Positions 32,662 to 56,273 of a stretch of DNA of 64,000 nucleotides are shown one piece after another. Position 1 is the first letter of the stretch; every line of letters starts with the position of its first letter. Below the pieces are notes generated by a model. The model worked only from the letters and a program-made list of their open reading frames with translations. It made no database searches and was not told the origin of the DNA. Origin of the DNA: Octopus vulgaris (Eukaryota); assembly GCA_951406725.2 (NCBI GenBank), contig CATOCA020000008.1, positions 78,072 to 142,071 on the forward strand, read 5' to 3'. The translations under genes were made by a program, and so were the position numbers.

Positions 32662-32752
32662 TTTTAGCTGATGAGTACGGGACACGTTTATATGCTGTAA
32701 TTTTTGCAACTTTTAATAAAACCTGTCCTTGTATGAAACGATTGTACTAAAA
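32662..32752 (+). ncRNA. Type I hammerhead ribozyme motif in the inverted PLE terminal repeat
   Basis: TTTTAG-CTGATGA-GTACGGGAC..GTCCTTGTAT-GAAACGATTGTA-CTAAAA; stems I and II pair. Confidence 0.75.
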
Positions 32753-33351
32753 ACCTATCCATTCTTGTTGCTTCATTCTCGCGTATATATATATATATAT
32801 ATATGAAGATAAACTTATATATATATCTATTCGCGCACGCACACACACACATATGGAGAAAAGAAGTGTATGAAGTGTATTCCCACGCAATAGTGAAAAT
32901 AGAAGAATTTGTTTATGCAAGTTGAGAATGTACTTGAGAAATACAATGCGTGGTATTTTTCAATTTTGTAACAGATTTACTAAAATAATAAAACAGCTTC
33001 GACAATTTTTCGTTTTTCAATTGTCAATAAAAAATGTTTAAGTACAAAGGGAATATGCGGAAAAAAGCACGCTTAAAACATCATGTGTTCGTACAACTTC
33101 CTATATTTTATAAGTTTCACAGAGATAGACAGTAATACAAGTTCAAATGTTCGATGAATTTCATAACAGTCATACATGACCGATAATTCAGTAACACGCA
33201 CACACACACACACACATATGGATCAAAACAGAGCCATACATGTAACTCTTGATAAATGTGTTGAGCGCCCTACTTTCATTTGTCCACTCACTCGTGTGTG
33301 TATGTGTGTGTGTGTGTATACATACATACTACATACATACATACATATATA

Positions 33352-34510: not shown

Positions 34511-34790
34511 AAACAATTGCTTCGTGGAAGGTGTTTATAAGCCATTTAAAACACACACAAAAAACCTTTAGATTCACTTCAACATTTAAGTTTAATTTGT
34601 CAAAGTATTTTCGTCACTTTGAGACCGCGACCTGTTCACTGACAGCATGGAATTTTGTCAGTGAACAGGTCGCGGTCTCAAAGCGACGAAAATATTTTGA
34701 CAAATTAAACTTAAATATTGAGGTGAAACTAACGGTTTTTGTGTGTTTTTGAATGGCTTATAAACACCTTCCACGCTGCAATTGCTTTTG
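34511..34790. repeat. ~280-bp foldback hairpin element
   Basis: ~134-bp inverted arms (CAATTGC..GACCTGTTCACTGACA / TGTCAGTGAACAGGTC..GCAATTG) with a ~11-nt loop. Confidence 0.9.
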
Positions 34791-34863: not shown

Positions 34864-35730
34864 ATACAGTTTGCGTAAGGTATTGGAGGATATACTATTT
34901 TTGGGTCATTGCTGCATTTTTTGCTAACTCTGTATAATCTTTGTTTCAGAAAATAATAATGGCAGACCCTCAGCTTACCCGAGAAATGAAGAGGCATGCT
35001 GTTATTGTGGTTATAAAGGCTGAACATGACGATTTAGAAATATCTTTATTTTTAAAAGTTGTCGGATCTTTTTAAAAGTTGTCTACAAAGTTTGTAAGGA
35101 ACTAGAGACTGAAGATGGAAGCATATCACCAATATCAAAGCGTTTTAAATGCTCTGAAATCATCAGAGCACCCGAATTTATCCAGCAAGTTCAACAGACC
35201 ATTTGTTACAATCCCAGAAAGTCCATGAGGTCAATTGCAAAAGATCTTCATGTGTCAGAAGGAACAGTTAGAAATGTTGTCCACGAAGACATCAGGAAAG
35301 ATCAATTTGTCAGAAAAAGCAAACGAAAATCACTCATCACATCTAAAAGGTTCTTAACAAATTGAAAAATCCAGCAGAAGATTTGATTTGGTTTTTCTCA
35401 AACGAGAAAAACTTCGACCTGATCAAAAAAGTTAACAAAAGAAATGACAGACTTTTATGTGCAGACCCTTCTGAAGTTCCATGTGTTATGCATACAAAAT
35501 TTCCTGCAACTGTCATGGTTTTAGGGGTTGTCAGTAATGAAGGACATATGATGCCTCCTTTCCACAAGGCCTTAAAGTTAACTTTGCCGACTACATTGAG
35601 GCCCTGGAAATAATTGTTAAGTTCTGGATAATATGCGATTTCGCGTTGCACTGGTTCTGCGAGTTGCACTGGATAGAAAGTGTATGCAATGGAAGGCCAT
35701 ATCTGTTTCAGTAAGACTCTGCACTATCAC
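34864..35730 (+). mobile_element. Decayed Tc1/mariner-superfamily (DD37D/maT-like) transposase remnant
   Basis: NPRKSMRSIAKDLHVSEGTV (HTH), WFFSNEKNF, TKFPATVMVLGVVSNEG, GRPYLFQ*DSA. Confidence 0.8.
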
Positions 35731-36208
35731 ACTCAAGCTAAAACTTGAGAACTACACAAGCTAAAACTTGAGAACTACACAACCAATTCCATTCAAATTT
35801 TACACATGCCTTACTTAGGGTCCATGTAGTTTCATGTTCAACTTCTTGCCTAGAGCGAGCTCATAGCAATATCATATCTTCTCCACTATTTCAGTATTAC
35901 GTGTTAAAAGTGAAACAAAAACGTTTCTCTATTTTATGTCAGATACTTTCACTTTAACAATAAAAAAATAATAACAATTGAATTATATGTAGTAAGTAAT
36001 AATTAAAATCAAACTAAAGTAGAATATAATCGTAACAACAAAAGTAAAAATAGCAATTGGTATAAAATTGCATCAATGACTTGAACTTGAATAAGTGGTT
36101 GTACATGAATGGGAATAAATTAAAAATATAATTAGCGTGCAGAAATGGAATAGTCCAGATGGATAATAAAAAATTAAATTAAAGAAAAGACTATTGTCTA
36201 TAAAGTAT

Positions 36209-37875
36209 ACAATGTAGAGAAAAAGAAGATTGAACGGCGGTGTTTTTTGCGCTCTGTAAAATTCGGTTGAAAAGGAAAAAAGAACAAAAAGTGAATTGTG
36301 GTTGTTGCGGAATTGGAACGTCGGTTGGTGCGGTTTCGCGTCGCACTGGTTCTGTGCGTCGCACGTTTTCTGTTCGGGAGGCCGTTTTTCGGTCTGAGGC
36401 GACTATGAGCCGCCTCTACCAAACGGATGAGATGGAAGGGAGAAATTTCTCTGAAAATTCGTCGACATCTGAGGAGGAAAGCACCTACGCAGGTATAACG
36501 AAGAAGTCAACAGAAAAAGAGATAGACCTGGCTAAGTTGACGGACTTCCAGGAGTTCATGAAGGAGGAGGAGAACGGAGAGGTTGAGCTGTTGCCTCTAG
36601 CAGGGCGCGGAGACTGGTTCCATCGTAGAACCATTAAATATAAAGTATTTATGAATGGAGGTAGAAAAATGGAAGTGATTAACATGGAAGCAATTGAAGA
36701 GGCTCTCAAACAGACAGGAGAAGAAATTGTGTACATGACAAAAGGATTACAATGTGGAACCATAACGGTACAATTTAAAAGTGAGAAAGCAGCCAGGAAT
36801 GTAGCAGCCAAGGTGGTGAGTACAGAAAAGATTTACTTGTTCCCCTCGTATTTGAATAGAAGGACCACCAGAATTAGGGTGGTGGGAATACCTCCACACC
36901 TAGAGGGCGAATTAATAACGGCTGCGGTTATCAAAGGAAATGAAGATAAAGTGGACATCCTCCACGCCATTATGAAATATGAGGGCTGGAGAGGCGTAAC
37001 AGTGGAGCTGAACGTACAGGCAGAGACCGAGGTACTGGTGGACCTGACGGAAAGCATCAGACTGGGAGAAGTGATCATGAGAGTGTGGGTGGAGGGCAGG
37101 GCTCCACGTTGTTACAAGTGTGGCCTGAGGGGTCACATAAGAGCCTTCTGCCCTCCCCCCAGGGAAAGAAACGGATTCCGAACCAGAGAGAGAGAAGCAG
37201 AAACCAGAAGAGAAGGAAACAGAGGAAGAGAATACACAGAAATGGAAGGGAGCTGGAAGTAAGAGGAAGAGAAGAATTCATGGAAAAGAAAATAATATGG
37301 AACTCCAATCTACCCCAAACCACCCACACCCTCTGAGTCCCACCCTATCCATGCAGACATTGAACCCACCCGCTCCCCCCAACAAGAAAACAAAAGAAAA
37401 AAAATTAACACATACACAAGAGATTGAAATCGAACCCAGGCCGTACATTTGTACTATGACTGAACAGAAAGAAGTTAAAAGTCTAATGGAAGAGTATAAA
37501 TGGTATGATGTTGGAGAGACTAGGTATGCTGTGATTGAAAAGAAGAACATAGGTGAGTTTATGGGGAGGTGTGAAAGGGAGAATTGGGAGGTGAAAGATA
37601 TAAGAATGAGCGATGAATTCGTGGAAGATATGGATGAGTATTTCGGAGTAAGAATGGATATGGAATTTATTCGTATTGACAAAGAACATTCAAGTGACTA
37701 TGAAAAACAAAGGACAGGTAAGTGATGCTGACGGACGGGGCCGTTGGTATCACTTTCATTTATCATTTTTCGTTTAACAATTCATGTTCATAAAGTTTAA
37801 TTATAATGTTCTATGTCCCCATGTTTTGTAATGTCCCCCTCTTCGTTGGCCCCTTGTGGGTAATAAAAAAAAAAA
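36209..37875 (+). mobile_element. Unit 1: chimera with B-type 5' half and A-type 3' half; frameshifted ORF1
   Basis: 5' matches unit 8 up to ~36980, then matches units 2-4; ORF fragments 36405-37262 and 37297-37725. Confidence 0.85.
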
Positions 37876-38060
37876 TTCGAACAAGTTTTTTCCGGTCGTT
37901 TTTTTTTCGGCTCCTGAAATTCGGCTGAAAAAAGAACAAAAAGCGTTGTTGTTGTTGTGGAAATTCTGAACGGCGTTGACGCGGTTTCGCGTTTCGCTCG
38001 TTCAGCGCGTTACACTTTTTCTGTTTTGGCGGCCGTTTTCGGTCTGTCAGACAGAAGGAA

Positions 38061-39479
38061 ATGGACTACGAGTCTCTAACAGACTTGTCCACGACGGATG
38101 AGGAACTGGAACAGGCAATTGCAGTGAAGCTGATGGAGGAAAAGGCTGGAGTTTTCGAGTCTTTATCAGACTTGTCTACATCTGAGGAGGAGCTAGAAAT
38201 AGCAGTGAGGAAAATGGATCAGAAGCTGGGTTATACCTATGCCGGTGTAACCAAGAAGGCGGAAGAGAAAGGGGTCGACATGGCCAAGTTGCCAAGTTAC
38301 CAGAAATACATGAAAAAGGAAAGCGGTGAGGTGGAACTATCACCGACACCCAGGAGAAAAGAATGGTATGATAAGAGGACCATTGTTTACAGGGTGTTCG
38401 CAAACGAAAGGAAGAGGGTAGAAGTTGTAACCATGGGATGGATAGAGGAAGCCCTGCGAAGAACTGAGGAGGAAATAAATTTTCTGACTCGAGGATCCAA
38501 GTACGGGACCGTAGTTGTGCACTTTAAAAGTGAATCTGTAGCGAGGAAGATGGCAGCGAAGGCGGTGAAGTCGGAAAAGGTAACACTGTTACCTACGTAT
38601 TTAAACAGGAGGATTACACGAATAAGGGTGGAGGGAGTGCCACCAAACGTGGAGGCAGAATGGATTGTGGCGGCTGTGATCAGCGGCCACGAGGACGAAG
38701 TGGATATTCTCCATGCCTCGGTTAAGTCCGAGGGCTGGAGAGGCGTAACAGTGGAGCTGAACGTACAGGCAGAGACCGAGGTACTGGTGGACCTGACGGA
38801 AAGCATCAGACTGGGAGAAGTGATCATGAGAGTGTGGGTGGAGGGCAGGGCTCCACGTTGTTACAAGTGTGGCCTGAGGGGTCACATAAGAGCCTTCTGC
38901 CCTCCCCCAGGGAAAGAAATGGATCCCGAACCAGAGAGAGAGAAGCAGAAACCAGAGGAGAAGGAAACAGAGGAAGAGAATACACAGAAATGGAAGGAAG
39001 CTGGAAGTAAGAGGAAGAGAAGAATATGTGGAAAAAAAGAAAATAATATGGAACTCCAATCTACCCCAAAACCTCCCACACCCTCTGAGTCCCACCCTAT
39101 CCATGCAGACATTGAACCCACCCGCTCCCCCCAACAAGAAAACAAAAGAAAAAAAAAGAATACACACACACAAGAGATTGAAATCGAACCCAGGCCGTAC
39201 ATTTGTACTATGACTGAACAGAGGGAAGTTAAAAGTCTAATGGAAGAGTATAAATGGTATGATGTTGGAGAGACTAGGTATGCTGTGATTGAAAAGAAGA
39301 ACATAGGTGAGTTTATGGGGAGGTGTGAAAGGGAGAATTGGGAGGTGAAAGATATAAGAATGAGCGATGAATTCGTGGAAAATATGAATGAGTATTTCGG
39401 AGTAAGAATGGATATGGAATTTATTCGTATTGGCAAAGAACATTCAAGTGACTATGAAAAACAAAGGACAGGTAAGTGA
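38061..39479 (+). CDS. Unit 2 intact ORF1-like protein (472 aa, A type)
   Basis: ATG to stop; TYAGVTKK, RRM-like GTVVVHF/TRIRVEGVP, CYKCGLRGHIRAFC; homologous to ORF1 of the LINE at 52380. Confidence 0.85.
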   Translation: MDYESLTDLSTTDEELEQAIAVKLMEEKAGVFESLSDLSTSEEELEIAVRKMDQKLGYTYAGVTKKAEEKGVDMAKLPSYQKYMKKESGEVELSPTPRRKEWYDKRTIVYRVFANERKRVEVVTMGWIEEALRRTEEEINFLTRGSKYGTVVVHFKSESVARKMAAKAVKSEKVTLLPTYLNRRITRIRVEGVPPNVEAEWIVAAVISGHEDEVDILHASVKSEGWRGVTVELNVQAETEVLVDLTESIRLGEVIMRVWVEGRAPRCYKCGLRGHIRAFCPPPGKEMDPEPEREKQKPEEKETEEENTQKWKEAGSKRKRRICGKKENNMELQSTPKPPTPSESHPIHADIEPTRSPQQENKRKKKNTHTQEIEIEPRPYICTMTEQREVKSLMEEYKWYDVGETRYAVIEKKNIGEFMGRCERENWEVKDIRMSDEFVENMNEYFGVRMDMEFIRIGKEHSSDYEKQRTGK

Positions 39480-39695
39480 TGCTGACGGACGGGGCCGTTG
39501 GTATCGCTTTCATTTTATCATTTTTTTCGTTTAACAATACATGTTCATAAAGTTTAATTATAATGTTCTATGTCCCCATGTCTTTTGTTGTCCCCCTCTG
39601 TGTCGCCCCTTAGTGGGTAATAAAAAATCAGCTCGTTCAGCGCGTTACACTTTTTCTGTTTTGGCGGCCGTTTTCGGTCTGTCAGACAGAAGGAA

Positions 39696-41056
39696 ATGGA
39701 CAACCCCTACCTGATGGGAGATACGGCTGCAGTTTTTGAGTCTTTAACAGACTTGTCTACGTCTGAGGAGGAGCTAGAAATAGCAGTGAGGAAAATGGAT
39801 CAGAAGCTGGGTTATACCTATGCCGGTGTAACCAAGAAGGCGGAAGAGAAAGGGGTCGACATGGCCAAGTTGCCAAGTTACCAGAAATACATGAAAAAGG
39901 AAAGCGGTGAGGTGGAACTATCACCGACACCCAGGAGAAAAGAATGGTATGATAAGAGGACCATTGTTTACAGGGTGTGCGCAAACGAAAGGAAGAGGGT
40001 AGAAGTTGTATCCATGGAATGGATAGAGGAAGCCCTGCGAAGAACTGAGGAGGAAATAAATTTTCTGACTCGAGGATCCAAGTACGGGACCGTAGTTGTG
40101 CACTTTAAAAGTGAATCTGCAGCGAGGAAGATGGCAGCGAAGGCGGTGAAGTCGGAAAAGGTAACACTGTTACCTACGTATTTAAACAGGAGGATTACAC
40201 GAATAAGGGTGGAGGGAGTGCCACCAAACGTGGAGGCAGAATGGATTGTGGCGGCTGTGATCAGCGGCCACGAGGACGAAGTGGATATTCTCCATGCCTC
40301 GGTTAAGTCCGAGGGCTGGAGAGGCGTAACAGTGGAGCTGAACGTACAGGCAGAGACCGAGGTACTGGTGGACCTGACGGAAAGCATCAGACTGGGAGAA
40401 GTGATCATGAGAGTGTGGGTGGAGGGCAGGGCTCCACGTTGTTACAAGTGTGGCCTGAGGGGTCACATAAGAGCCTTCTGCCCTCCCCCAGGGAAAGAAA
40501 TGGATACCGAACCAGAGAGAGAGAAGCAGAAACCAGAGGAGAAGGAAACAGAGGAAGAGAATACACAGAAATGGAAGGAAGCTGGAAGTAAGAGGAAGAG
40601 AAGAATACGTGGAAAAGAAAATAATATGGAACTCCAATCCACCCCAAAACCACCCACGCCCTCTGAGTCCCACCCTATCCATGCAGACATTGAACCCACC
40701 CGCTCCCCCCAACAAGAAAACAAAAGAAAAAAAAGAATACATACACACAAGAGATTGAAATCGAACCCAGGCCGTACATTTGTACTATGACTGAACAGAA
40801 AGAAGTTAAAAGTCTAATGGAAGAGTATAAATGGTATGATGTTGGAGAGACTAGGTATGCTGTGATTGAAAAGAAGAACATAGGTGAGTTTATGGGGAGG
40901 TGTGAAAGGGAGAATTGGGAGGTGAAAGATATAAGAATGAGCGATGAATTCGTGGAAAATATGGATGAGTATTTCGGAGTAAGAATGGATATGGAATTTA
41001 TTCGTATTGGCAAAGAACATTCAAGTGACTATGAAAAACAAAGGACAAGTAAGTGA
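39696..41056 (+). pseudogene. Unit 3 ORF1 (A type), frameshift in a poly-A run near 40730
   Basis: ORFs 39696-40790 and 40787-41056 together match unit 2. Confidence 0.85.
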
Positions 41057-41372
41057 TGCTGACGGACGGGGCCGTTGGTATCGCTTTCATTTTATCATTT
41101 TTTTCGTTTAACAATTCATGTTCATAAAGTTTAATTATAATGTTCTATGTCCCCATGTTTTGTTATGTCCGCCATTCTTCGTAGCCCCTTAGTGGGTAAT
41201 AAAGAAATACGCGGTTTTTTCGGCTCCTGAAAATTCGGTAAAAAAGAACAAAAAGCGTTGTTGTTGTTGTGGAAATTCTGAACGGCGTTGACGCGGTTTC
41301 GCGTTTCGCTCGTTCAGCGCGTTACACTTTTTCTGTTTTGGCGGCCGTTTTCGGTCTGTCAGACAGAAGGAG

Positions 41373-42788
41373 ATGGACTATGAGTCTCTAACAGACTTGT
41401 CCACGACAGATGAGGAACTGGAACAGGCAATTGCAGTGAAGCTGATGGAGGAAAAGGCTGGAGTTTTTGAGTCTTTATCAGACTTGCCTATGTCTGAGAA
41501 GGAGCTAGAAATGGCAGCAAGGAAATTGGAAGACAAGCTGAGTTATACCTATGCCGGTGTAACCAAGAAGGCGGAAGAGAAAGGGGTCGACATGGCCAAG
41601 TTGCCAAGTTACCAGAAATACATGAAAAAGGAAAGCGGTGAGGTGGAACTATCACCGACACCCAGGAGAAAAGAATGGTATGATAAGAGGACCATTGTTT
41701 ACAGGGTGTGCGCAAACGAAAGGAAGAGGGTAGAAGTTGTATCCATGGAATGGATAGAGGAAGCCCTGCGAAGAACTGAGGAGGAAATAAATTTTCTGAC
41801 TCGAGGATCCAAGTACGGGACCGTAGTTGTGCACTTTAAAAGTGAATCTGCAGCGAGGAAGATGGCAGCGAAGGCGGTGAAGTCGGAAAAGGTAACACTG
41901 TTACCTACGTATTTAAACAGGAGGATTACACGAATAAGGGTGGAGGGAGTGCCACCAAACGTGGAGGCAGAATGGATTGTGGCGGCTGTGATCAGCGGCC
42001 ACGAGGACGAAGTGGATATTCTCCATGCCTCGGTTAAGTCCGAGGGCTGGAGAGGCGTAACAGTGGAGCTGAACGTACAGGCAGAGACCGAGGTACTGGT
42101 GGACCTGACGGAAAGCATCAGACTGGGAGAAGTGATCATGAGAGTGTGGGTGGAGGGCAGGGCTCCACGTTGTTACAAGTGTGGCCTGAGGGGTCACATA
42201 AGAGCCTTCTGCCCTCCCCCAGGGAAAGAAACGGATTCCGAACCAGAGAGAGAGAAGCAGAAACCAGAGGAGAAGGAAACAGAGGAAGAGAATACACAGA
42301 AATGGAAGGAAGCTGGAAGTAAGAGGAAGAGAAGAATTCATGGAAAAGAAAATAATATGGAACTCCAATCTACCCCAAAACCACCCACACCCTCTGAGTC
42401 CCACCCTATCCATGCAGACATTGAACCCACCCGCTCCCCCCCAACAAGAAAACAAAAGAAAAAAAAGAATACACATACACAAGAGATTGAAATCGAACCC
42501 AGGCCGTACATTTGTACTATGACTGAACAGAAAGAAGTTAAAAGTCTAATGGAAGAGTATAAATGGTATGATGTTGGAGAGACTAGGTATGCTGTGATTG
42601 AAAAGAAGAACATAGGTGAGTTTATGGGGAGGTGTGAAAGGGAGAATTGGGAGGTGAAAGATATAAGAATGAGCGATGAATTCGTGGAAAATATGGATGA
42701 GTATTTCGGAGTAAGAATGGATATGGAATTTATTCGTATTGACAAAGAACATTCAAGTGACTATGAAAAACAAAGGACAGGTAAGTGA
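41373..42788 (+). CDS. Unit 4 intact ORF1-like protein (471 aa, A type)
   Basis: ATG to stop, near-identical to unit 2. Confidence 0.85.
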   Translation: MDYESLTDLSTTDEELEQAIAVKLMEEKAGVFESLSDLPMSEKELEMAARKLEDKLSYTYAGVTKKAEEKGVDMAKLPSYQKYMKKESGEVELSPTPRRKEWYDKRTIVYRVCANERKRVEVVSMEWIEEALRRTEEEINFLTRGSKYGTVVVHFKSESAARKMAAKAVKSEKVTLLPTYLNRRITRIRVEGVPPNVEAEWIVAAVISGHEDEVDILHASVKSEGWRGVTVELNVQAETEVLVDLTESIRLGEVIMRVWVEGRAPRCYKCGLRGHIRAFCPPPGKETDSEPEREKQKPEEKETEEENTQKWKEAGSKRKRRIHGKENNMELQSTPKPPTPSESHPIHADIEPTRSPPTRKQKKKKNTHTQEIEIEPRPYICTMTEQKEVKSLMEEYKWYDVGETRYAVIEKKNIGEFMGRCERENWEVKDIRMSDEFVENMDEYFGVRMDMEFIRIDKEHSSDYEKQRTGK

Positions 42789-43118
42789 TGCTGACGGACG
42801 GGGCCGTTGGTATCACTTTCATTTTATCATTTTTCGTTTAACAATTCATGTTCATAAAGTTTAATTATAATGTTCTATGTCCCCATGTTTTGTAATGTCC
42901 CCCTCTTCGTTGGCCCCTTGTGGGTAATAAAAAATCACGTGTTTTTTTCGGCTCTGTGTTTTTTGCTCTCTGTGAAATTCGGTAAAAAGAAAAAAGAACA
43001 AAAAGTGAATGGTTGTTGGTGTAAAATTTTGAACATAGTTGATGAGGTTTCGCGTCTCACTGGTTCTGCGCGTTACACTTTTTCGGTTCGGGAGGCCGTT
43101 TCTCGGCCGGAGGCGACT

Positions 43119-44446
43119 ATGAGCCGCCTCCATCAAGCGGAGGAGATGGAAGGGAGAATTTACTCTGAAATTTCGACGGAAGTATCGACATCTGAGGAGG
43201 AGTTGGCGGTGAAAAAGATGGAAGGCACCTACGCAGGTGTAACGAAGAAGTCAACGGAAAAGAGATAGACTTGGCTAAGTTGGCGGGCCTCCAGGAATTT
43301 GTGAAGGAGGACGAGAACGGTGAAGTTGAGCTGCTGCATCCAGTAGGGTGCGGAGACTGGTTCCATCGTAGAACCATTAAATATAAAGTATTTATGAATG
43401 GAGGTAGAAAGATGGAAGTAATTAACATGGAAGCAATTGAAGAGGCTCTTAAGCAGACGGGAGAGGAAATTGTGTACATGACGAAAGGATTACAATACGG
43501 AACCATAACGGTGCAATTTAAAAGTGAAAAAGCAGCCAGGAATGTAGCAGCCAAGGTGGTGAGTACAGAAAAGATTTACTTGTTACCCTCGTATCTGAAT
43601 AGGCGGACAACTAGAATTAGGTGGAGGGAATACCTCCACACCTAGAGGGCGAATTAATAACGGCTGCGGTTATAAAAGGAAATGAAGATAAAGTGGACAT
43701 CCTCCACGCCATTATGAAGTATGAAGGCGTGAGAGGTGCCACACTAGTTATGAACGTTCAAACGGAGGCGGATGTTATAGAGAAGATTACGGACAGCATA
43801 AAGACTGGAAATATTATTATGAGAGTGTGGGTGGAGGGTAGGGCGCCCAGGTGCTACAAGTGTGGCCAAAGGGGTCACATAAGAGCCTACTGCCCTCCCC
43901 CACCAAAGGAAAAAGAAAAGGAAAGCGTTGAGGAAGCCTCAGGAGAGGAAGAAAATAAACAGAAACAAACAGAGAAGAAAACGACAGAAGAAGAGGAGAT
44001 GCAACAAGAGTGGAAAGAAGCGGGAACAAAGAGAAAAAGAAGGAAAAAGAAAAAACTGTGCGAAGCCCCAACCCACCCCGACACCACCCATACCCTTGGA
44101 GTCCCATCCTTCCCCTGCAAACAGTAATTCCACCCACTCCCCGCCTACAAGAAGAATAAAAACAGACACACAGAGCAAAGAAAGTCCCAAGACCCATTTT
44201 TTATTTGTTATACATGGGAGAGACGTACAAAACGTTAAAAAACTGGTGTTAACCAAGTGGTACGAACACGAAGATTGGAGCTACACGGCTGTGGATGGTG
44301 ATGATACGGGTATATTGGCGACAAGGTTAGAGGAAGAGGGTGTGTGTTGGAAGTCAGTGGAAATGAAAGATGAATGGATAGAGAGGGCTAAAAGAAAAAC
44401 GAATGTTGTGATGGTTAAAACAGGAATACTAATTGAAAATGGGTGA
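43119..44446 (+). pseudogene. Unit 5 ORF1 (B type), several frameshifts
   Basis: Fragments at 43271, 43621 and 43928 are co-linear with unit 6. Confidence 0.85.
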
Positions 44447-44775
44447 AGAAGGACAGATAAGTGATGCTGGCGGATGGGGCCGTCGGTATCGCTCTCATAT
44501 ATCATTTTCATATTCCATTTTGCTCATATATATGTAATTGTGATGTTCCATGTCCCCATGTCTTGTAATGTCCCCCTCTTCGTTGGCCCCTTGTGGGTAA
44601 TAAAAAATCACGTGTTTTTTTGCTCTCTGTGAAATTCGGTAAAAAGAAAAAAGAACAAAAAGTGAATGGTTGTTGTTGTAAAATTTTGAACATAGTTGAT
44701 GCGGTTTCGCGTCTCACTGGTTCTGCGCGTTACACTTTTTCGGTTCGGGAGGCCGTTTCTCGGCCGGAGGCGACT

Positions 44776-46104
44776 ATGAGCCGCCTCCATCAAGCGGAGG
44801 AGATGGAAGGGAGAATTTACTCTGAAATTTCGACGGAAGTATCGACATCTGAGGAGGAGTTGGCGGTGAAAAAGATGGAAGGCACCTACGCAGGTGTAAC
44901 GAAGAAGTCAACGGAAAGAGAGATAGACTTGGCTAAGTTGGCGGGCCTCCAGGAGTTTGTGAAGGAGGACGAGAACGGTGAAGTCGAGCTGCTGCATCCA
45001 GTAGGGCGCGGAGACTGGTTCCATCGTAGAACCATTAAATATAAAGTATTTATGAATGGAGGTAGAAAGATGGAAGTAATCAACATGGAAGCAATTGAAG
45101 AGGCTCTCAAGCAGACAGGAGAGGAAATTGTGTACATGACAAAAGGATTACAATACGGAACGATAACGGTGCAATTTAAAAGCGAAAAAGCAGCCAGGAA
45201 TGTAGCAGCCAAGGTGGTGAGTACAGAAAAGATTTACTTGTTACCCTCGTATCTGAATAGGCGGACAACTAGAATTAGGGTGGAGGGAATACCTCCACAC
45301 CTAGAGGGCGAATTAATAACGGCTGCGGTTATAAAAGGAAATGAAGATAAAGTGGACATCCTCCACGCCATTATGAAGTATGAAGGCGTGAGAGGTGCCA
45401 CACTAGTTATGAACGTTCAAGCGGAGGCGGATGTTATAGAGAGGATTACGGACAGCATAAAAACTGGAAATATTATTATGAGAGTGTGGGTGGAGGGTAG
45501 GGCGCCCAGGTGCTACAAGTGTGGCCAAAGGGGTCACATAAGAGCCTACTGCCCTCCCCCACCAAAGGAAAAAGAAAAGGAAAGCGTTGAGGAAGCCTCG
45601 GGAGAGGAAGAAAATAAACAGAAACAAACAGAGAAGGAAACGACAGAAGAAGAGGAGATGCAACAAGAGTGGAAAGAAGCGGGAACAAAGAGAAAAAGAA
45701 GGAAAAAGAAAAACTGTGCGAAGCCCCAACCCACCCCGACACCACCCATACCCTTGGAGTCCCATCCTTCCCCTGCAAACAGTAATTCCACCCACTCCCC
45801 GCCTACAAGAAGAATAAAAACAGACACACAGAGCAAAGAAAGTCCCAAGACCCATTTTTTATTTGTTATACATAGGAAAGACATACAAAACGTTAAAAAA
45901 CTGGTGTTAACCAAGTGGTACGAACACGAAGATTGGAGCTACACGGTTGTGGACAGTGATGATACGGGTATATTGGCGACAAGGTTAGAGGAAGAGGGTG
46001 TGTGTTGGAAGTCAGTGAAAATGAAAGATGAATGGATAGAGAGGGCTAAAAGAAAAACGAATGTTGTGATAGGTGAAACAGGAATACAAATTGGAAATGG
46101 GTGA
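44776..46104 (+). CDS. Unit 6 intact ORF1-like protein (442 aa from MSRLHQ, B type)
   Basis: Open frame with TYAGVTKK, GTITVQF, CYKCGQRGHIRAYC; C-terminal domain differs from A type. Confidence 0.85.
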   Translation: MSRLHQAEEMEGRIYSEISTEVSTSEEELAVKKMEGTYAGVTKKSTEREIDLAKLAGLQEFVKEDENGEVELLHPVGRGDWFHRRTIKYKVFMNGGRKMEVINMEAIEEALKQTGEEIVYMTKGLQYGTITVQFKSEKAARNVAAKVVSTEKIYLLPSYLNRRTTRIRVEGIPPHLEGELITAAVIKGNEDKVDILHAIMKYEGVRGATLVMNVQAEADVIERITDSIKTGNIIMRVWVEGRAPRCYKCGQRGHIRAYCPPPPKEKEKESVEEASGEEENKQKQTEKETTEEEEMQQEWKEAGTKRKRRKKKNCAKPQPTPTPPIPLESHPSPANSNSTHSPPTRRIKTDTQSKESPKTHFLFVIHRKDIQNVKKLVLTKWYEHEDWSYTVVDSDDTGILATRLEEEGVCWKSVKMKDEWIERAKRKTNVVIGETGIQIGNG

Positions 46105-46266
46105 AGAAGGACAGACAAGTGATGCTGGCGGATGGGGCCGTCGGTATCACTCTCATATATCATTTTTCATATTCCATTTTGCTCATATATATGTAATTGT
46201 GATGTTCCATGTCCCCATGTCTTGTAATGTCCCCCTCTTCGTTGGCCCCTTGTGGGTAATAAAAAA

Positions 46267-47373
46267 TCACGTGTTTTTTTCGGCTCCTGAAATTCGGTAA
46301 AAAAGAACAAAAAGCGTTGTTGTTGTTGTGGAAATTCTGAACGGCGTTGACGCGGTTTCGCGTTTCGCTCGTTCAGCGCGTTACACTTTTTCTGTTTTGG
46401 CGGCCGTTCTCGGTCTGTCGGACGGAAGGAGGTGGACTATGAGTCTCTGACAGACTTGTCCACGACAGATGAGGAGCTGGAACGGGCAATTGCAGTGAGG
46501 CTGATGGAAGAAAGGGCTGGAATTTTCGAGTCTTTATCAGACCTGCCTGCGTCTGAGAAGGAGCTAGAAATGGCAGCAAGGAATTTGGAGGGCCGGGCTC
46601 CACGTTGTTACAAGTGTGGCCTGAGGGGTCACATAAGAGCCTTCTGCCCTCCCCCAGGGAAAGAAATGGATTCCGAACCAGAGAGAGAGAAGCAGAAACC
46701 AGAGGAGAAGGAAACAGAGGAAGAGAATACACAGAAATGGAAGGAAGCTGGAAGTAAGAGGAAGAGAAGAATGCGTGGAAAAGAAAATAATATGGAACAC
46801 CAATCTACCCCAAAACCACCCACACCCTCTGAGTCCCACCCTATCCATGCAGACATTGAACCCACCCGCTCCCCCCAACAAGAAAACAAAAGAAAAAAAA
46901 AGAATACACACACAGACAAGAGATTGAAGTCGATATCAGGCCGTACATTTGTACTATGACTGAACAGAAAGAAGTTAAATGTCTAATGGAAGAGTATAAA
47001 TGGTATGAAGTCGGTGAGACTAGGTATGCTGTGATTGAAAAGAAGAACATAGGTGAGTTTATGGTGAGGTGTGAAAGGGAGAATTGGGAGGTGAAAGATA
47101 TAAGAATGAGCGATGAATTCGTGGAAAATATGGATGAGTATTTCGGAGTAAGAATGGATATGGAATTTATTCGTATTGGCAAAGAACATTCAAGGGACGA
47201 TGAAAAACAAAGGACAGGTAAGTGATGCTGACGGATGGGGCCGTTGGTATCACTTTCATTTTCTCATTTTTTCGTTTAACAATTCATTTTCCATAAAGTT
47301 TAATTATAAATGTTTTATGTCCCCATGTCTTTTGGTGTCCACTTCTGTGTCGCCCCTAGTGGGTAATAAAGAA
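46267..47373 (+). mobile_element. Unit 7: A type, internal deletion of the RRM region, A-to-G changes including ATG to GTG
   Basis: Jumps from MAARNL to EGRAPRC near 46587; cluster of A-to-G versus unit 4 at 46420-46550. Confidence 0.85.
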
Positions 47374-49071
47374 ATACAATGTAGAGAAAAAGAAGATTGA
47401 ACGGCGGTGTTTTTTGCGCTCTGTAAAATTCGGTTGAAAAGGAAAAAAGAACAAAAAGTGAATTGTGGTTGTTGCGGAATTGGAACGTCGGTTGGTGCGG
47501 TTTCGCGTCGCACTGGTTCTGTGCGTCGCACGTTTTCTGTTCGGGAGGCCGTTTTTCGGTCTGAGGCGACTATGAGCCGCCTCTACCAAACGGATGAGAT
47601 GGAAGGAGAAATTTCTCTGAAAATTCGTCGACATCTGAGGAGGAGTTGGCGGTGAAAAAAATGGAAAGCACCTACGCAGGTATAACGAAGAAGTCAACAG
47701 AAAAAGAGATAGACCTGGCTAAGTTGACGGACTTCCAGGAGTTCATGAAGGAGGAGGAGAACGGAGAGGTTGAGCTGTTGCCTCTAGCAGGGCGCGGAGA
47801 CTGGTTCCATCGTAGAACCATTAAATATAAAGTATTTATGAATGGAGGTAGAAAAATGGAAGTGATTAACATGGAAGCAATTGAAGAGGCTCTCAAACAG
47901 ACAGGAGAAGAAATTGTGTACATGACAAAAGGATTACAATGTGGAACCATAACGGTACAATTTAAAAGTGAGAAAGCAGCCAGGAATGTAGCAGCCAAGG
48001 TGGTGAGTACAGAAAATATTTACTTGTTCCCCTCGTATTTGAATAGAAGGACCACCAGAATTAGGGTGGTGGGAATACCTCCACACCTAGAGGGCGAATT
48101 AATAACGGCTGCGGTTATCAAAGGAAATGAAGATAAAGTGGACATCCTCCACGCCATTATGAAATATGAAGGCGTGAGAGGTGCCACACTAGAAATGAAC
48201 ATACAGACGGAGACGGAAGTTATAGATAAGCTTACGGACAGTATACAAACTGGGAATATTATTATGAGAGTGTGGGTGGAGGGTAGGGCGCCCAGGTGCT
48301 ACAAGTGTGGCCAGAGGGGTCACATAAGAGCCTACTGCCCTCCCCCACCAAAGGAAAAGGAAATCGTTGCGGAAGCCCCAAAAGAGGACGCCCCAAAAGA
48401 GGAAGAAACTAAAGAGAAACAAACAGAAAAGGAAACGACAGAAGAAGAGGAGATGCAACAAGAGTGGGAAGAAGGCAGAAAAAAGAAAAAGAAAAACTGT
48501 GCGAAGCCCCAACCCACCCCAACACCACCCACACCCTCTGAATCCCACCCCTCCCCTGCAGACAGTGAACCCACCCGCTCCCCTCCAACAAGAAAACAAA
48601 AAAAAAAATAACACAGACAGACAAGAGACTGAAAGCGAACCCAGGCCGAACATTTGTATTATGACAGAACAGAAAGAGGTTAAAAGGGTAATGGAAGGGT
48701 ATACATGGTGCGATTCAGGTGTGACCAGGTGTGCAGTGATTGAAAAGGAGAGAATAGATGAGTTTATGAGAAGGTGCGAAAGGGAGAATTGGGAGGTGGA
48801 AGAGATGAGTCTGAGTGATGAATCCGTGAAAAATATGGAGAATCGTTTTGAAGTGAGAATGGAGAATATCGGTTTTATTATTGGAAATTGGAGTGACGGC
48901 GAAAACCAAAGGACAGGTAAGTGATGCTGGCGGAGGGGGCCGTTGGCATCGCTTTCATATTATCATTTTTTCATGTAACAATTCATCCTTCATAAATTTA
49001 ATTATAATGTTCTATGTCCCCATGTCTTGTAATGTCCCCCTCTTCGTTGGCCCCTTGTGGGTAATAAAGAA
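47374..49071 (+). mobile_element. Unit 8: B-type N-terminus with A-related C-terminal domain; frameshifted
   Basis: ORFs 47646-48611 and 48367-48924. Confidence 0.85.
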
Positions 49072-50497
49072 TCAAGATTCGAACAAGGTCGGTCGTTTTT
49101 TTGCGCTCTGTGGAATTCGGCTGAAAAGGGGAAGGGAACAGAGGGTGTTGTTGTTGTTGTGGAAATTTTGAGCGTCGTTGATGCGATTTCGCGTTGCACT
49201 GGTTCTGCGAGTTGCACTTTTTCTGTTCGGGCGGCCGTTTTCGGTCTGTCGGACGGAGGGAGGTGGACTTTGGTTCCCTGTCGGACTTGTCTGCGTCTGG
49301 GGAGGAGCTGGAACGGGCAGTGGGAGGGATGGATCGAGGGCTGGGTTGTACCTGTGCCGGTGTGACCAGGAGGGCGGAGGAGAGGGGGGTGGACTTGGCC
49401 GGGCTGCCGGGTTGCCAGAAGTGTGTGAGGGGGGATGGCGGTGGGGTCCGGGAGGGTGGCTCTTTTGCCTACATGTCTAGATGGAGGGATTGCACGAGTG
49501 GGGGTGGGGGGGGTGCCACCGAGCGTTGAGGCCGAGTGGATTGTGGCGGCTGTGATTGGCGGCCGCGAGGTGGAGGTGGATGTTCTCCATGCCTCGGTTG
49601 GGACCGAGGGCTGGAGAGGCGTAGCAGTGGAGCTGAGCGTGCAGGCGGGGAGCGAGGTGCTGGTGGACCTGGCGGAGGGCATCGGGTTGGGAGACGTGAT
49701 CATGAGAGTGTGGGTGGAGGGCAGAGCTCCACGTTGTTACAAGTGTGGCCTGAGGGGTCACATAAGAGCCTTCTGCCCTCCCCCAGTGAAAGAAATGGAT
49801 TCCGAACCGCAGAGAGGGAGGCCGGAGGAGAGGGAGACGGTGGAGGAGGAGAATTTACAGAAATGGAAAGAAGCTGGGAATAAGAGGAAGAGGAGAATAC
49901 GAGGAAAAGAAAATAACATAGAACACTAATCCACCCCAACACCACCCACACCCTCTGAGACCCACCCTATCCCTGCAGACAGTGAACCCACCCGCTCCCC
50001 TCCAACAAGAAAACAAAAGAAAAAAATAATACAGACAGACAAGAGTTTGAAATCGAACCCAGGCCGAACATTTATATTATGACTGAACAGAAAGAAGTGA
50101 AAAGGGTAATGGAAGAGTATAAATGGTATGAAATAGGTGAGACCAGATATACAGTGCTGGAAAAGAAGAATATAGATGAGTTTGTGTTGAGGTGTGAAAG
50201 GGAGAATTGGGAGGTGAAAGATACAAGAAAGAGCGATGAATTCGTGGAAAATATGGAGGAGTATTTCGGAGTAAGAATGGATATGGATGGTCTTCGTATT
50301 GGGAATGAACATTCAGGTGACAGTGAAAACAAAAGGACAGGTAAGTGATGCTGGCGGATGGGGCCGTTAGCATCGCTTTCATATTATCATTTTTCATTTT
50401 AATATTCATTTGCTCATAAATTTAATCATATTGTTCTATGTCCCCCATGTTTTGTTATGTAAGCCAATCTTCGTAGCCCCTGGTGGGTAATAAAGAA
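49072..50497 (+). mobile_element. Unit 9: A-related (C subtype), A-to-G hypermutated 5' half, internal deletion
   Basis: G-rich rewrite of the unit 2/3/10 sequence over ~49130-49690; 3' half near-identical to unit 10. Confidence 0.88.
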
Positions 50498-52151
50498 AGA
50501 AAGGTCGGTCGTGTTTTTTTGCGCTCTGTAAAATTCGGTTAAGGGGGAAAAAGGAACAAAAAGTGTTGTTGTTGTGGAAATTTTGAACGTCGTTGATGCG
50601 GTTTCGCGTTGCACGGGTTCTGCGAGTTACACTTTTTCTGTTCGGGCGGCCGTTTTCGGTCTGTCAGACAGAAGGAGATTGACTGTAATTCCTTATCAGA
50701 CTTGTCTGCGTCTGAGGAGAAGCTGGAGCGGGCAGTGGGAATGATGGATCGAAGGCTGGGTTGTTCCTGTGCCGGTGTAAGCAGGAGGGCGGAGGAGAGG
50801 CGGGTGGACTTGGCCGGGCTGCCGAGTTGCCGGAAATATATGAAGGGGGATGGCGGTGAGGTCGAACTGGCGCCGACACCTAAGAGAGGGGAATGGTGTG
50901 ATAGAAGGACCATTGTGTGCAGGGTGGTCGCAAACGAAAGGAAGAAGATAGAAGTTGTAAACATGGAGTGGATAGAGGAGGCGCTGAGAAGAACGGAGGA
51001 GGAAGTGAATTTTCTGACTCGAGGATAAAAGTATGGTACTGTAGTGGTACAGTTTAAAAGTGAGAATGCAGCAAGGAAGATAGCGGCGAAGGCGGTGAAA
51101 TCCGAAAAGGTAACACTTTTGCCTACGTATTTAAACAGAAAAATTACACGAGTAAGGGTCGAGGGAGTGCCACCAAACGTTGAGGCCGAGTGGATTGTGG
51201 CGGCTGTGATCAGCGGCCACGAGGAGGAAGTGGATATTCTCCATGCCTCGGTTAAGACCGAGGGCTGGAGAGGCGTAACAGTGGAACTGAACGTGCGGGC
51301 AGAGAACGAAGTACTGGTGGACCTGGCGGAAAGCATCAGATTGGGAGACGTGATCATGAGAGTGTGGGTGGAGGGCAGAGCTCCACGTTGTTACAAGTGT
51401 GGCCTGAGGGGTCACATAAGAGCCTTCTGCCCTCCCCCAGTGAAAGAAATGGATTCCGAACCGCAGAGAGGGAGGCGGAGGCCGGAGGAGAGGGAGACGG
51501 TGGAGGAGGAGAATTCACAGAAATGGAAAGAAGCTGGGAATAAGAGGAAGAGGAGAATACGAGGAAAAGAAAATAACATAGAACACCAATCCACCCCAAC
51601 ACCACCCACACCCTCTGAGACCCACCCTATCCCAGCAGACAGTGAGCCCACCCGCTCCCCTCCAACAAGAAAACAAAAGAAAAAAAATAATACAGACAGA
51701 CAAGAGTTTGAAATCGAACCCAGGCCGAGCATTTATATTATGACTGAACAGAAAGAAGTGAAAAGGGTAATGGAAGAGTATAAATGGTATGAAATAGGTG
51801 AGACCAGATATACAGTGCTGGAAAAGAAGAATATAGATGAGTTTGTGTTGAGGTGTGAAAGGGAGAATTGGGAGGTGAAAGATACAAGAATGAGCGATGA
51901 ATTCGTGGAAAATATGGAGGAGTATTTCGGAGTAAGAATGGATATGGATGGTCTTCGTATTGGGAATGAACATTCAGGTGACAGTGAAAACAAAAGGACA
52001 GGTAAGTGGTGCTAGCGGATGGGGCCGTTGGCACCGCTTTCATATATCATTTTAATAATTCATTTTTACTCATATCTATGTAATTGTGATGTTCTATGTC
52101 CCCAATGTTTGTAACGTCCCCTCTATGTAGCCCCTAGTGGGTAATAAAGAA
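50498..52151 (+). mobile_element. Unit 10: C subtype, partially A-to-G mutated, premature stop at ~51026
   Basis: ORFs 50609-51028 and 51044-52015. Confidence 0.85.
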
Positions 52152-52379
52152 TTAACTTGGAGGAAAGCTATTTGCGTTTATTGTAAGTTGATATATTTTT
52201 GCTGTCGTATTATTATCTCTGTTATTCTCTACTGTTTGTCCACCTGTTTTTGTCTTTTGCTGTCTAACTGTCGAAGTCAGCCTTCGCGCGAGGACTTCGC
52301 GTTGGTGTTCCCCCCTCCGTGGGGGAAAAATAACATTTATCTTGAAGATACCAAGGGCTTGTGAAGCCAACTGTTCGGG

Positions 52380-53740
52380 ATGGAGTCCCCCATCTCTTCT
52401 TCGCCCGTGACGAGTGAAGAGGAGTTTCCGGCGATGTCGCCAAGGAAAAAAGAGGCGGTGTCGCCAAAGAAAAAAGAGGCAATGTCGCCAAAGAAAAAGG
52501 AAAACCAAGCACCAGCACCAGCTCCAGCGAAAAAATTCTCTGAAGTGGCCGGTAAAAGGATCAAGAAAATAAACGTGGAGGATTTGGAAAAATATGCAGA
52601 CTGTGTAAAAAAAGAGGGCACGGAAGTGACAGTGGTCACAAACGTCCAAAAATACGATGAAATAGAAAAAAAAAGGATAATATATAAGACATATAACACA
52701 ACGACAAAAATGATTAAAAAAATTGAAGAAAAAAAATAGAGAACTGTCTAAAACCTTTAATGGATAAAATAACGTACATTAACAGAGGAAAGAGATACGG
52801 CACAGTGGAGGTGCGTTTTACTACTGAGGAGACTGCAAAAAAACTATCTATGGAGCCGATTAAAGCGGAGAACATTGTTCTCCTCCCCTTATATAGAGGG
52901 AAAAGAACGTTGAAAATTTCGATGAACAACATACCACCAGAGGCAGATGCCGAATGTCTGGTGGCAGCAGTGATGGTAGGCCTGGAGGAAAAAATAAACA
53001 TCCTCCAGGCCACAGTGGAGAAAGAGGAATTTTGGAAAGGGCAGAAAATAGTAATAGCCATTCAGGCGGAAGTGCAAACACTGGAGGAAATACCAGAAAC
53101 ATTAAAAATTAGTGAAGACGAGAGAATAACAGTTTTCGTGGAGGGCAGAAAGCCGAGGTGTTTCGGCTGCGGCAAGAAGGGTCATGTAAGGGCGGAATGC
53201 CAACCCCAACCCAAACCGCAGGAAGTACCTCAGCCAGGTGAAAAAGAAGATAAAGTGTCACCAGAAGCAGCGCCGGGCGGCCCAGAAGGGACGACTGAAG
53301 GTGTGGAGGTGACAAAGGCAGCAGAACCAGTGGCGGAGGAAAATAAGAGCGAGGAAAAGATAAATGAGGAGGGGTGGGCAAAAATCACCAAAAAAAAAAA
53401 AAGAAAAACGGAAACCACCCCTCCCAGAGTGAACTTAAAAAAGAAAAGGGAGTCAATGAAGTCGTATATGGCCGTTAAGGCATCAAATAACAGACTCGGA
53501 AACGTGTTGGTAGCTATGGCCAAAGTGGAGAAAATAGAGAAAAAAAACGACTTTGTAGTTTACAGAATAGGCCGGAAGGATTACGGGCGGATAAAGTCCG
53601 AATTCTTCCATGACGTAGGCCCACTTAGAATGGATGTGACATCCCCACATATATTCGAGGGCCTACGTCAGACTCCCCCACGAGGCCCTGAAAAAGAATT
53701 AAACAAAGAAGAAAAGGAGAAAACCGAACCACTGATATAA
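52380..53740 (+). pseudogene. LINE ORF1 (CCHC knuckle), frameshift in poly-A near 52735
   Basis: GKRYGTVEVRF, VFVEGRKPRCFGCGKKGHVRAEC. Confidence 0.85.
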
Positions 53741-53749
53741 AGGTAAGTA

Positions 53750-55570
53750 ATGGATTGCATTTATGTTGGTTGTTTGAATGTGCGCGGCCTGGGAGCAGGC
53801 TGGAAGCAAGGTCGCTTCCTGCATGATATCAGGTCGCGTAATTTAGATGTTATTGTTGCTACAGAAACCCGGTTAGAGGGGCCAAGAGGTCTACTCCCGC
53901 TGGCAAGGGTGGGGCACTGGTCCATTTAGACCAATCTAAAGCATTTGATAGTGTCGACCATCGTTACCTGGTATCTGCCCTGGCACAGTTCGGGCTGAGC
54001 CTTGGCTTCCTCAGGTGGATTATCCAAATTTATGATAACATCGACTCGGTAGTTCGGGTGAACGGCTTCTTGTCGAAGCCGTTCAAAATCAAGCGCTCGG
54101 TTCGTCAAGGGTGTCCGCTCTCCCCGCTTTTGTACGTGATGGCTCTTGAGCCATTACTGCGAAAACTGAGCGGCATCCCGAGACAGCCAGGTAGTGGAAA
54201 ATCAGTGTCAGCGTACGCGGATGACATCACCATCATCGTGACCGAAATGGACCACCTATGTAAAGTAGGCAAGGCCATAGAGGTTTACGAGACGGTGACA
54301 GGAGCAAAAGTTAATCGCGAAAAGTCAGTCGGCTTGCAACTCGGCACCTGGAGAGGCAAGTCGATGCCTCCTAACAGCGTCGTGAGACGTTGGACGGAGG
54401 GTCCGATTAAATTGCTAGGGGTCTGGTTCGGTCCAGACCTCCAAATAGAGAAGAATTGGGGCGAGGTAACGAGCAGGGTGGCTGCAGTAACCAAGACCTG
54501 GTCTTGGCGGTGGCTATGCCTGAAAGGGAGGGCGGAGGTGGCCAATGTGTTTATCGCATCGGTTATCACCTTCCGCCTTTCCGTCGTTCCTTGCCCTGAT
54601 TCGTGGTTGATCAAGTTGGAAAGACAGCTCTTCTACTTCTTGTGGAAGGGCGGGAAACCACTTGTGAAACGCTCTACTTGCTGTCAACAACCGTTAAAGG
54701 GTGGGCTAGGGATGCCTTGGCTGATGATGTGCAGACATGCGCTGAGGTTAAGACATCTGTGGCTCTACCTGGATGGTGAACGGGTGTGGTCTCCGCTAGC
54801 AAAACTGATGTTTCCCAAGTTCACTAGTTTCGGTGGATGGGAAACCTGGCTGAATCGTAGATCGAAACTTGGTACTTGGTACACGGAGTGTCGCAAGGCT
54901 CTCCTGCTATTTCGTCGCTCGGGCAACGCCTGCGGTGGGGGTTCCACCACATTCTTCTATAGAGGGTTGGTAGAGGCGGAATGTGAAGATACCTTGGGGA
55001 AACCCTAGGTCTCGACGATAATCAGCTGGCCAGTCTGTTCCGACGTACGTTCAAGCCGAGGACACTGGACAACTTCCAGAAGTCTCTGGCATGGCAATGC
55101 TACAGAGGAGCTCTACCTGTTCGGGATAAACTCGCAAGGCACGGTGGCCAAGACAGTCCGATATGTCCAAGATGCGGGCGGGATAGGGAAACCGTCCCGC
55201 ACGCTATTGTTCATTGTCCGGACGTGTCTGAGGTGTGGGTTTATGCCGAACAGCTGTTGTCAAGTACACGAAGAGTACAGCTGTCGACTGAGTCGATTAC
55301 AAAAATTGACCCACCGGATTTCCTCGCGAATGAAGGTAAGTTTCGTTTTCTCATTGTAGTAGCAATTGCGAAAGAGGTGATATGGAAGACGAGAATGAAA
55401 GGTCTACAGTCAGGCAAGTTCATCTCCGGCCCTGGTTTGATGAATTATTTCATCTTTCACCTGAAAAGGAAGATAGGGCTGGAGAGAATATGCCTGAGTG
55501 TATGAAGAACGATGGAAAGATGTAGCACGAAAGTTGCGAGTGAATGATACAACATAAATGTAAAACCAAA
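53750..55570 (+). pseudogene. LINE ORF2 remnant (APE start + RT C-half + terminal Cys/His motif)
   Basis: Same motifs as unit 11; out-of-frame deletion junction near 53900; stop at 55008. Confidence 0.85.
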
Positions 55571-56273
55571 CGTAACCAAAAGTATCAGTGGGTAGGCGGG
55601 GCTCGTGGAGTCCGAGCTAAACCCGCACCCACTCCACCCGTAATGTCTTCCGGTCTGTTCCATCATTCGATTTCTGTCTAATTTTTGTAATTTCATGTAA
55701 ATTTTTAAATTCGTTTTATTGTAAAAACCCATTCGTGTGTCTGACCCCATCATCAGATTGTATTGTCCCATCTATGTTCGCCCCTTGTGGGTAATAATAA
55801 AACAACATGGAGGAAAGCACCTTCGAAAAGTGTCTTGATGCGACTATGAAAGGTATCTAATCAGAGGCGGTAAATTCGCCACAATAGAAGCAAGGTTCGA
55901 GTCAACGGAGCGTGCAAGTACTCGACTCGAACTTGCAAAGTGGAAATATTTTATTATTACCTTTATATCTGGGGCGTAGGACGTCCCGGAAAAAAATTTT
56001 AAATGCCCCCCCCCAAAAAAAAAAGTAGAGGTAGGCTGGATTGTAGCCACACTTCTATACAAGATACACTTGATCGAAATTACAAGAGACGGGCTAACAA
56101 TTCCAGTCTGTTATATATTTTCAGTATTGTTATCACTAGCGATATCAAGATATAACTTTGTATTTTGTATTTTATGTGTAGATGTATATATATAGATGTA
56201 CATGTAATATGTACACATATATATACACATGCACTAGCACTTTGAGCCGGCAACGACGGGTCTTTAATGCTAG

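Follow-up and report, generated by a model that had tools for sequence, protein, structure and literature searches.

A-to-G change clusters in a tandem array of ORF1-only octopus retroposons and their probable origin in ADAR-type RNA editing

The window analyzed here is a stretch of 64,000 nucleotides from Octopus vulgaris (GenBank assembly GCA_951406725.2, contig CATOCA020000008.1, positions 78,072 to 142,071 of the forward strand), and it holds an array of ten retroposon units (36195-52147, plus strand), arranged head-to-tail and of 1.1-1.8 kb each, which carry a first open reading frame (ORF1) only and have a short terminal tail in common. Units 7 (46263-47369, plus strand), 9 (49068-50493) and 10 (50494-52147), whose limits agree with the numbering of the original prediction made on this DNA, contain dense clusters of A-to-G changes. 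The sequence evidence makes it probable that germ-line transcripts of these retroposons, which would be moved by a long interspersed nuclear element (LINE), were edited by ADAR and reverse-transcribed into DNA, and the editing of the 5' half is likely to have been recurrent in the family.

The comparators in the A state are units 2-4 (37867-42930, plus strand), in two of which, units 2 and 4, ORF1 is open (472 and 471 amino acids) and includes a CCHC knuckle. In unit 10, a tract of 31 A>G sites, counted at columns with A in both units 2 and 4, extends over 50708-50919 (plus strand), and the rate of A>G is 31/75 in 50693-50925 against 15/281 in the quiet parts of the unit (p 2e-13). The same unit has G alleles in its 5' A-run (50543-50553, plus strand), where 50543-50545 are A in unit 9 and in relatives from X1, one of the public runs described below. 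The tract of unit 9, delimited through the comparison with unit 10, covers 49112-49686 (plus strand), with around 239 nt deleted near 49433; this unit has G at 66 of the 179 aligned A of unit 10 in 49068-49817 and at none of 183 in 49818-50267, and over the 1401 columns of the two units there are 69 A>G, 15 G>A, 6 T>C and 6 C>T differences. The G-rich patch proposed as common to the two units was confirmed, with ten G shared and none private (unit 9, 49809-49849; unit 10, 51463-51509; both on the plus strand), and its rate of 10/25 also exceeds the 15/281 of the quiet parts of unit 10 (p 3e-6). The unit 10 cluster had been described as overlapping the unit 9 sites only in part; it is instead nested in them, given that 20 of 22 unit 10 G are also G in unit 9, the overlap (unit 10, 50693-50849) being composed of 20 shared, 11 unit 9-only and two unit 10-only G, with 16 sites changed in neither. 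Nine further G sites of unit 10 (50852-50919) lie inside the region deleted from unit 9.

The cluster of unit 7 (46420-46549, plus strand) is formed by nine sites, at 46420, 46424, 46432, 46449, 46476, 46484, 46499, 46514 and 46549, and the corresponding 150-nt bin holds nine A>G, two G>A, three T>C and no transversions relative to unit 4. At the columns where units 2-4 agree, the rate of A>G is 8/49 in the cluster and 1/248 in the 3' part (p 2.6e-6, for a window picked post hoc); a scan by majority column is uninformative for this unit, in which 46480-46585 is misaligned. The proposal that unit 7 has its own cluster versus unit 4 stands in terms of the nine changes, but these are not all private, as the G alleles at 46420, 46424 and 46432 are also present at the homologous positions of unit 9. 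The G alleles of unit 7 arose on a separate haplotype, since this unit has the flanking alleles of unit 4 and an 87-nt internal duplicate, which is absent from units 9 and 10. The other substitution classes are at the background level in the tracts of all three units, and all the motifs quoted in the original prediction were found in place.

When the tracts are pooled, A>G is rarer after a 5' G (12/106) than in other contexts (83/145, p 2e-14), an avoidance that recurs in the N-terminal sites shared by units 9 and 10 (1/16 vs 19/33), the further unit 10 sites (0/10 vs 9/16), the patch (1/12 vs 9/13) and the sites private to unit 9 (9/46 vs 39/57), whereas ordinary divergence lacks it (background 5/92 vs 10/189). 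A scarcity of G on the upstream side characterizes ADAR editing in every animal group studied, according to the available portion of PMC5625713, in which the octopus and the frog provide the strongest hyper-editing signal. The A>G class is the sole one in excess, on the sense strand only, and is concentrated in the dense clusters by which an editing footprint is recognized. The ends of the tracts are sharp, with none of 26 A changed in the knuckle and 31 of 60 in the adjoining sequence. Sense-strand G>A clusters of the APOBEC type were looked for and not found, and both the outgroup and the family majority give G as the derived state.

At the protein level, around two-thirds of the tract changes are non-synonymous (22/33, 23/34 and 24/36), the expectation for random A>G being 0.70-0.77, and the other changes in the quiet part of the unit 10 reading frame include 18 non-synonymous and 22 synonymous ones. 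The tracts are rich in K>R, K>E and Y>C changes (eight K>R and five Y>C codons in the unit 10 tract relative to unit 2), the start codon of unit 7 was removed by the A>G at 46432, and that of unit 9 was also lost. Given that a single substitution class is involved, on the sense strand only, with avoidance of a 5' G and no synonymous bias, an ADAR-type origin of the tracts appears to be a strong probability.

The polarity of the changes was read at outgroup columns, which are those where the A-type and B-type units agree, with the B-type unit 8 (47370-49067, plus strand) as the outgroup. At these columns, A>G reaches 26/52 in the middle of unit 9, with G>A at 1/56, and the corresponding values are 10/28 and 2/26 in the N-terminal part of unit 10 and 8/19 and 0/5 in the patch. 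In unit 8 itself, A>G (33/424) is not in excess over G>A (38/365), and the two are in balance in the B-type units. By eye, unit 8 has a few codon changes resembling A>G at 48690-48745 relative to the A-type units (two Y>C and one E>G).

Contigs from four of 24 public runs (X1, X2, X6 and X15) were compared with 49068-51087, a range outside which lie unit 7 and the unit 10 copy of the patch; no RNA holder is listed among the 24, and X15 is only presumed to be RNA. Each of the four runs has 68-93 places at which the family is A and the window G, and 25-34 with the reverse. A 289-nt contig of run X2 matches unit 9 (49225-49513) with no differences, a 295-nt contig of run X1 matches unit 10 (50661-50955) with none, and a 314-nt contig of run X6 has four differences from unit 10 (50647-50960); these three runs come from three studies and bear three organism labels. 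As X1 and X6 are different samples, the unit 10 tract is present in at least one sample other than the source, and the unit 9 tract is represented by X2 only. Among the contigs listed, which cannot prove absence, there is no exact unit 9 tract in X1 or X6, no exact unit 10 tract in X2, and no G-state patch in any run, and the loose contig ends at 49816 are in the A state in X1, X2 and X15. Since the run contigs reproduce both tracts and the family majority is A, the G alleles of the tracts of units 9 and 10 are real and derived. Three run contigs differ from the unit 10 tract by 23, 21 and 28 changes, with G/A counts of 22-23, 22 and 25-26, as unedited sisters of that tract would, and units 2 and 4 differ from it by 34-42.

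From these observations we infer an enzyme, an RNA stage and a partner in trans, either antisense or inverted. The proposed sequence of events would begin with an L1-like LINE having the common 3' tail, which may mobilize the non-autonomous units. Some of the germ-line transcripts of these units would form duplex RNA over the 5' half, in which ADAR could turn around half of the accessible A into inosine, and reverse transcription would then fix the inosine as G in the new genomic copies. Editing is likely to have occurred on no fewer than two or three separate occasions (the unit 7 lineage, the unit 9/10 lineage and the extra tract of unit 9), and the G alleles common to units 9 and 10 would be partly inherited, through either a second cycle of retrotransposition or exchange at the DNA level, and partly convergent at favored sites.

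The editing of half of the A over 600 nt requires a long duplex. The persistent double-stranded RNA partner postulated for the 5' region was looked for in the window, through folding and a search for inverted copies, and was not found. As a long duplex is needed and the window provides none, the partner would be one in trans, either an antisense RNA or, at the source locus, an inverted copy. The first 700 nt of units 2 and 4 do fold better than shuffled versions (12 shuffles, z -3.5 and -3.4; 20 shuffles for unit 4, z -4.5), but the folds have short hairpins only, with longest stacks of 9-14 bp, and the edits do not track the pairing. An imperfect hairpin of around 21 bp is predicted before the start codon of unit 7 (46386-46430, plus strand), and the same one in units 4 (41327-41371), 9 (49217-49261) and 10 (50632-50676), also on the plus strand, with all of these coordinates placed by alignment offset. 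This hairpin holds the first two sites common to units 7 and 9 and accounts only for the sites next to the start codon, where the predicted stem may plausibly act as a hot spot in cis.

Several points weigh against editing by ADAR. The window contains neither a long duplex in cis nor an inverted copy, and in the unit 4 fold pairing is no more frequent among the edited A than among the unedited ones (p 0.3-0.9). As to the 3' neighbor, the tendency is toward G (19/31 vs 29/72, p 0.056), and A is the downstream base reported for invertebrate hyper-editing in the available portion of PMC5625713. The patch has six synonymous and five non-synonymous changes. Unit 7 is modest when taken alone, with nine A>G against two G>A (p 0.065) and a 5'-G avoidance of 1/22 vs 7/26 (p 0.055); its polarity, judged by eye, is doubtful at 46424, where the B-type units have G, and at 46476, where the internal duplicate has G, and two of its sites belong to a stem, in which a change to a G-U pair would be neutral. 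Human L1 RNA, in turn, was not edited by ADAR1 in a cell assay, according to the part of PMC5224506 that was available.

The G alleles could also represent the old state, lost in the other units by ordinary subfamily divergence or CpG decay, in agreement with the two of nine unit 7 sites of doubtful polarity, the three of nine unit 7 G that are in CpG, and the fact that units 9 and 10 form a distinct subtype with many common changes other than A/G. This is improbable, and for units 9 and 10 largely refuted, as neither T>C nor C>T is in excess, the edited sites come mostly after A or T rather than C, start codons were lost, Y>C is recurrent, and the three run contigs differ from the unit 10 tract by about their G/A count, far below units 2 and 4. 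The insertion of G opposite T on the second strand by a polymerase facing skewed deoxynucleoside triphosphate pools, a known mechanism, or the action of a DNA adenine deaminase, would dispense with ADAR and with the partner that the window lacks, and would sit well with the mild preference for a 3' G; neither predicts the 5'-G avoidance, the sharp tract ends or the repeated hits in the 5' half, which leaves this explanation with little probability. An artefact of assembly or base calling is extremely improbable when the contigs of X2, X1 and X6 match the two tracts with zero, zero and four differences, even though the array is repetitive, one of the compared runs could be the source sample, and neither unit 7 nor the G-state patch appeared in the contigs listed; the sequencing error described in the available portion of a trace survey is G-to-A, which is the opposite direction (PMC2873906).

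Within the reading of ADAR editing, the relation between units 9 and 10 may be explained in two ways, which have about even odds. The first, serial layering, supposes that an edited insertion was transcribed and edited again, so that unit 10 would show the first layer and unit 9 both, a quite possible history, if somewhat short of an even chance. It is favored by the nesting of the sites (raw p 3e-4; p 0.04 when stratified by neighbor preference), the probability of 0.02 of finding two or fewer unit 10-only sites at the rate that unit 9 shows elsewhere, and the equality between the unit 9 rate on the sites left by unit 10 (8/12) and that elsewhere (31/45). The sharing of the ten patch sites (stratified p 0.00016) also speaks for it, as does a joint of run X6 that, by eye, has the unit 7 alleles and two more G. 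On the other hand, the nesting is largely explained by the fact that both tracts follow the same neighbor rule, and it falls to p 0.16 among the sites not preceded by G, where the total unit 9 rate in the overlap is 27/33 (p 0.29 vs elsewhere). Setting A/G aside, the two units differ by 14/531 changes over the 5' part, against 5/688 over the patch-bearing part (p 0.009), which fits later homogenization. Record 25 of run X6, with its 28 differences from the unit 10 tract (G/A count 25-26), has 25 from the middle of unit 9, where unit 10 differs by 45, so that by these counts it would have around 20 of the middle differences of unit 9 without the supposed first layer, a pattern that hot spots or mosaics fit better than nested layers.

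The other explanation, with a similar chance, also a little below even, combines independent editing at hot spots with the exchange of the patch at the DNA level between the neighboring units 9 and 10, by conversion or unequal crossing-over. Exchange between units does occur, since unit 1 (36195-37866) is a plain chimera, with a 5' half of unit 8 (four differences over the first 749 columns) and a 3' half of the unit 4 type (five differences from unit 4 over the last 762). The three sites common to units 7 and 9 on different haplotypes, two of them in the cis stem, also point in this direction, as do the mixtures of G and A of runs X1, X2 and X6 at the unit 9-private places 49475-49486 and the identity of units 9 and 10 over 164 columns spanning the knuckle and the patch, apart from a 6-bp indel, on the basis of which DNA conversion of the patch-bearing stretch is plausible. 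What it leaves aside is the residual nesting signal (p 0.02-0.04), and any conversion tract would be bounded, as the last 100 nt of the two units differ at 17/102 columns, the stretch before them being around 99% alike. The last 100 nt of the units (52041-52147, 50381-50493 and others) are variable and mosaic among units. Under either explanation, retrotransposition or DNA-level exchange, the patch was inherited rather than edited twice. The 5' bias could also come from the replacement of 3' halves by exchange.

The claim that editing recurred over several cycles of retrotransposition holds for the recurrence, in view of the U4-type haplotype of unit 7 as opposed to that of units 9 and 10 and of the G-rich contigs of the runs, such as the X1 joint with four A>G within 39 nt relative to unit 3, and is weaker for the successive cycles. 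Descent of all the G alleles from a single lineage with an ordinary transition spectrum was examined and is not what the data reveal.

The units fall into at least three subtypes, A (units 2-4 and 7), A' (units 9 and 10) and B (units 5, 6 and 8), with unit 1 chimeric, and the window is animal DNA with many microsatellites. The intact units encode a single protein of about 440-470 amino acids, with a CCHC knuckle that scores under the Pfam cut-off; an Atlas comparison, to be taken as a lead only, gave CCHC-domain clusters at 0.92. A reverse transcriptase (RT) family is absent from both of the unit reading frames scanned (n=2). Downstream of the array, a broken L1-like LINE (52380-55800, plus strand) includes an ORF1, a short ORF2 start, an RT fragment and the 3' tail of the units, and its ORF1 has 40% identity to that of the units over 168 amino acids (E 8e-40). 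The tail is common to the units, the LINE (55714-55804) and two repeats on the minus strand around 13 kb (12912-13186) that resemble short interspersed nuclear elements, and one RT probably serves all three. A 58%-identical relative has human L1 ORF2p as the closest solved structure (E 3e-50; R2, 4e-24). The clade of the partner LINE may be Tx1, a label that is not mentioned in the accessible part of a study of octopus LINEs (PMC9115989). The proteins closest to the unit ORF1 are those predicted for Octopus vulgaris from 17 large contigs, with identities reaching 100% over the C-terminal part only, and the relatives found in protein searches are all C-terminal fragments, none of which covers the edited part. 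Given the ORF1 homology, the tail and the dispersed relatives, the units are best read as dispersed, non-autonomous, LINE-dependent octopus retroposons. Metagenome scans for related loci gave 35 pattern matches with none confirmed and, in a second scan, no matches, and an Rfam scan of 36000-56000 matched no family.

Unit 7 has a 624-nt internal deletion at 46585/46586, and by eye there are short microhomologies at the joins of this deletion and of that of unit 9 (49433), where the microhomology seems to be extended by the A>G changes, a feature compatible with a switch of template on edited RNA. A 38-bp piece at 35633-35670 (plus strand) is identical to unit 9 at 49181-49218, including its own G at 49214, and looks like a templated insertion from unit 9 DNA or RNA; it is flanked by 7-bp direct repeats, 13.5 kb from unit 9, in a host that we take to be a mariner-type relic. 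A near-perfect palindrome (34511-34787), with arms of 85 nt (93%) and 41 nt (90%), precedes the array by 1.4 kb, and two long pairs of inverted repeats at 9601-10842 and 28570-32787 (379 bp at 98.7% and 345 bp at 99.7%) are probably the ends of DNA transposons.

RNA editing is usually seen as non-heritable, and ADAR1 was reported to restrict human L1 with no editing of it. Here, edits at around half of the A over 600 nt appear to have reached the DNA common to different animals, with the loss of start codons and the recoding of ORF1. Given this, germ-line ADAR activity would become testable from the genome sequence alone, some A/G differences among octopus repeats would be fossil edits that may confuse RNA-editing calls and the dating of repeats, and the high editing of cephalopods may offer a route by which retroposons are both disabled and diversified. 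A broader proposal, which is rather doubtful, is that the family repeatedly returns hyper-edited germ-line RNA to the genome, with the edited copies re-transcribed, re-edited and re-inserted; if true, ADAR would act as a mutagen that is cumulative, heritable and strand-specific, and germ-line editing would have left in the genome a fossil record that can be dated. HeT-A-type ORF1-only tandem elements without long terminal repeats (non-LTR elements) and Tx1-clade LINEs are known for a gag-like ORF1, head-to-tail arrays and a partner RT, and the octopus units, known here from their sequence, resemble the HeT-A type in having ORF1 only, a head-to-tail arrangement and a reliance on the RT of a partner.

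No account of genomically fixed non-LTR copies with A-to-G hyper-editing came up in the literature search, although subscription papers and supplements were poorly covered and an earlier one may exist. The screens of genomes for retroelement editing, in the part of PMC4866542 that was available, dealt with G-to-A changes in LTR elements, with invertebrates serving as a negative control. The APOBEC-edited LTR retrotransposons of that study are likewise fixed hypermutated copies with strand-biased clusters and a neighbor motif, but their G-to-A changes occur on the cDNA of vertebrate LTR elements, whereas those of the octopus units are A-to-G and affect a molluscan non-LTR element. The octopus repeat RNA in the available portion of PMC5625713, with around 1.1 million hyper-edited reads, likewise presents clusters with upstream G depletion, although its edits are found in RNA only and favor a downstream A, while those of the units are in DNA and lean to a downstream G. 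The antisense promoter of the mouse L1 ORF1, as an analogy only, would yield duplex RNA of the 5' part as needed here, and the term ADAR is absent from the main text of that paper, in the form available (PMC3985663). The avian retroviruses RAV-1 and avian leukosis virus include A-to-G hyper-edited forms (Felder 1994; Hajjar and Linial 1995, as cited in the available part of PMC8586724) and, like the units, carry ADAR-type A-to-G clusters made in RNA that is later reverse transcribed, but they are exogenous LTR retroviruses, whereas the octopus units are non-LTR, ORF1-only elements of the host, present in several copies, heritable and found under multiple organism labels.

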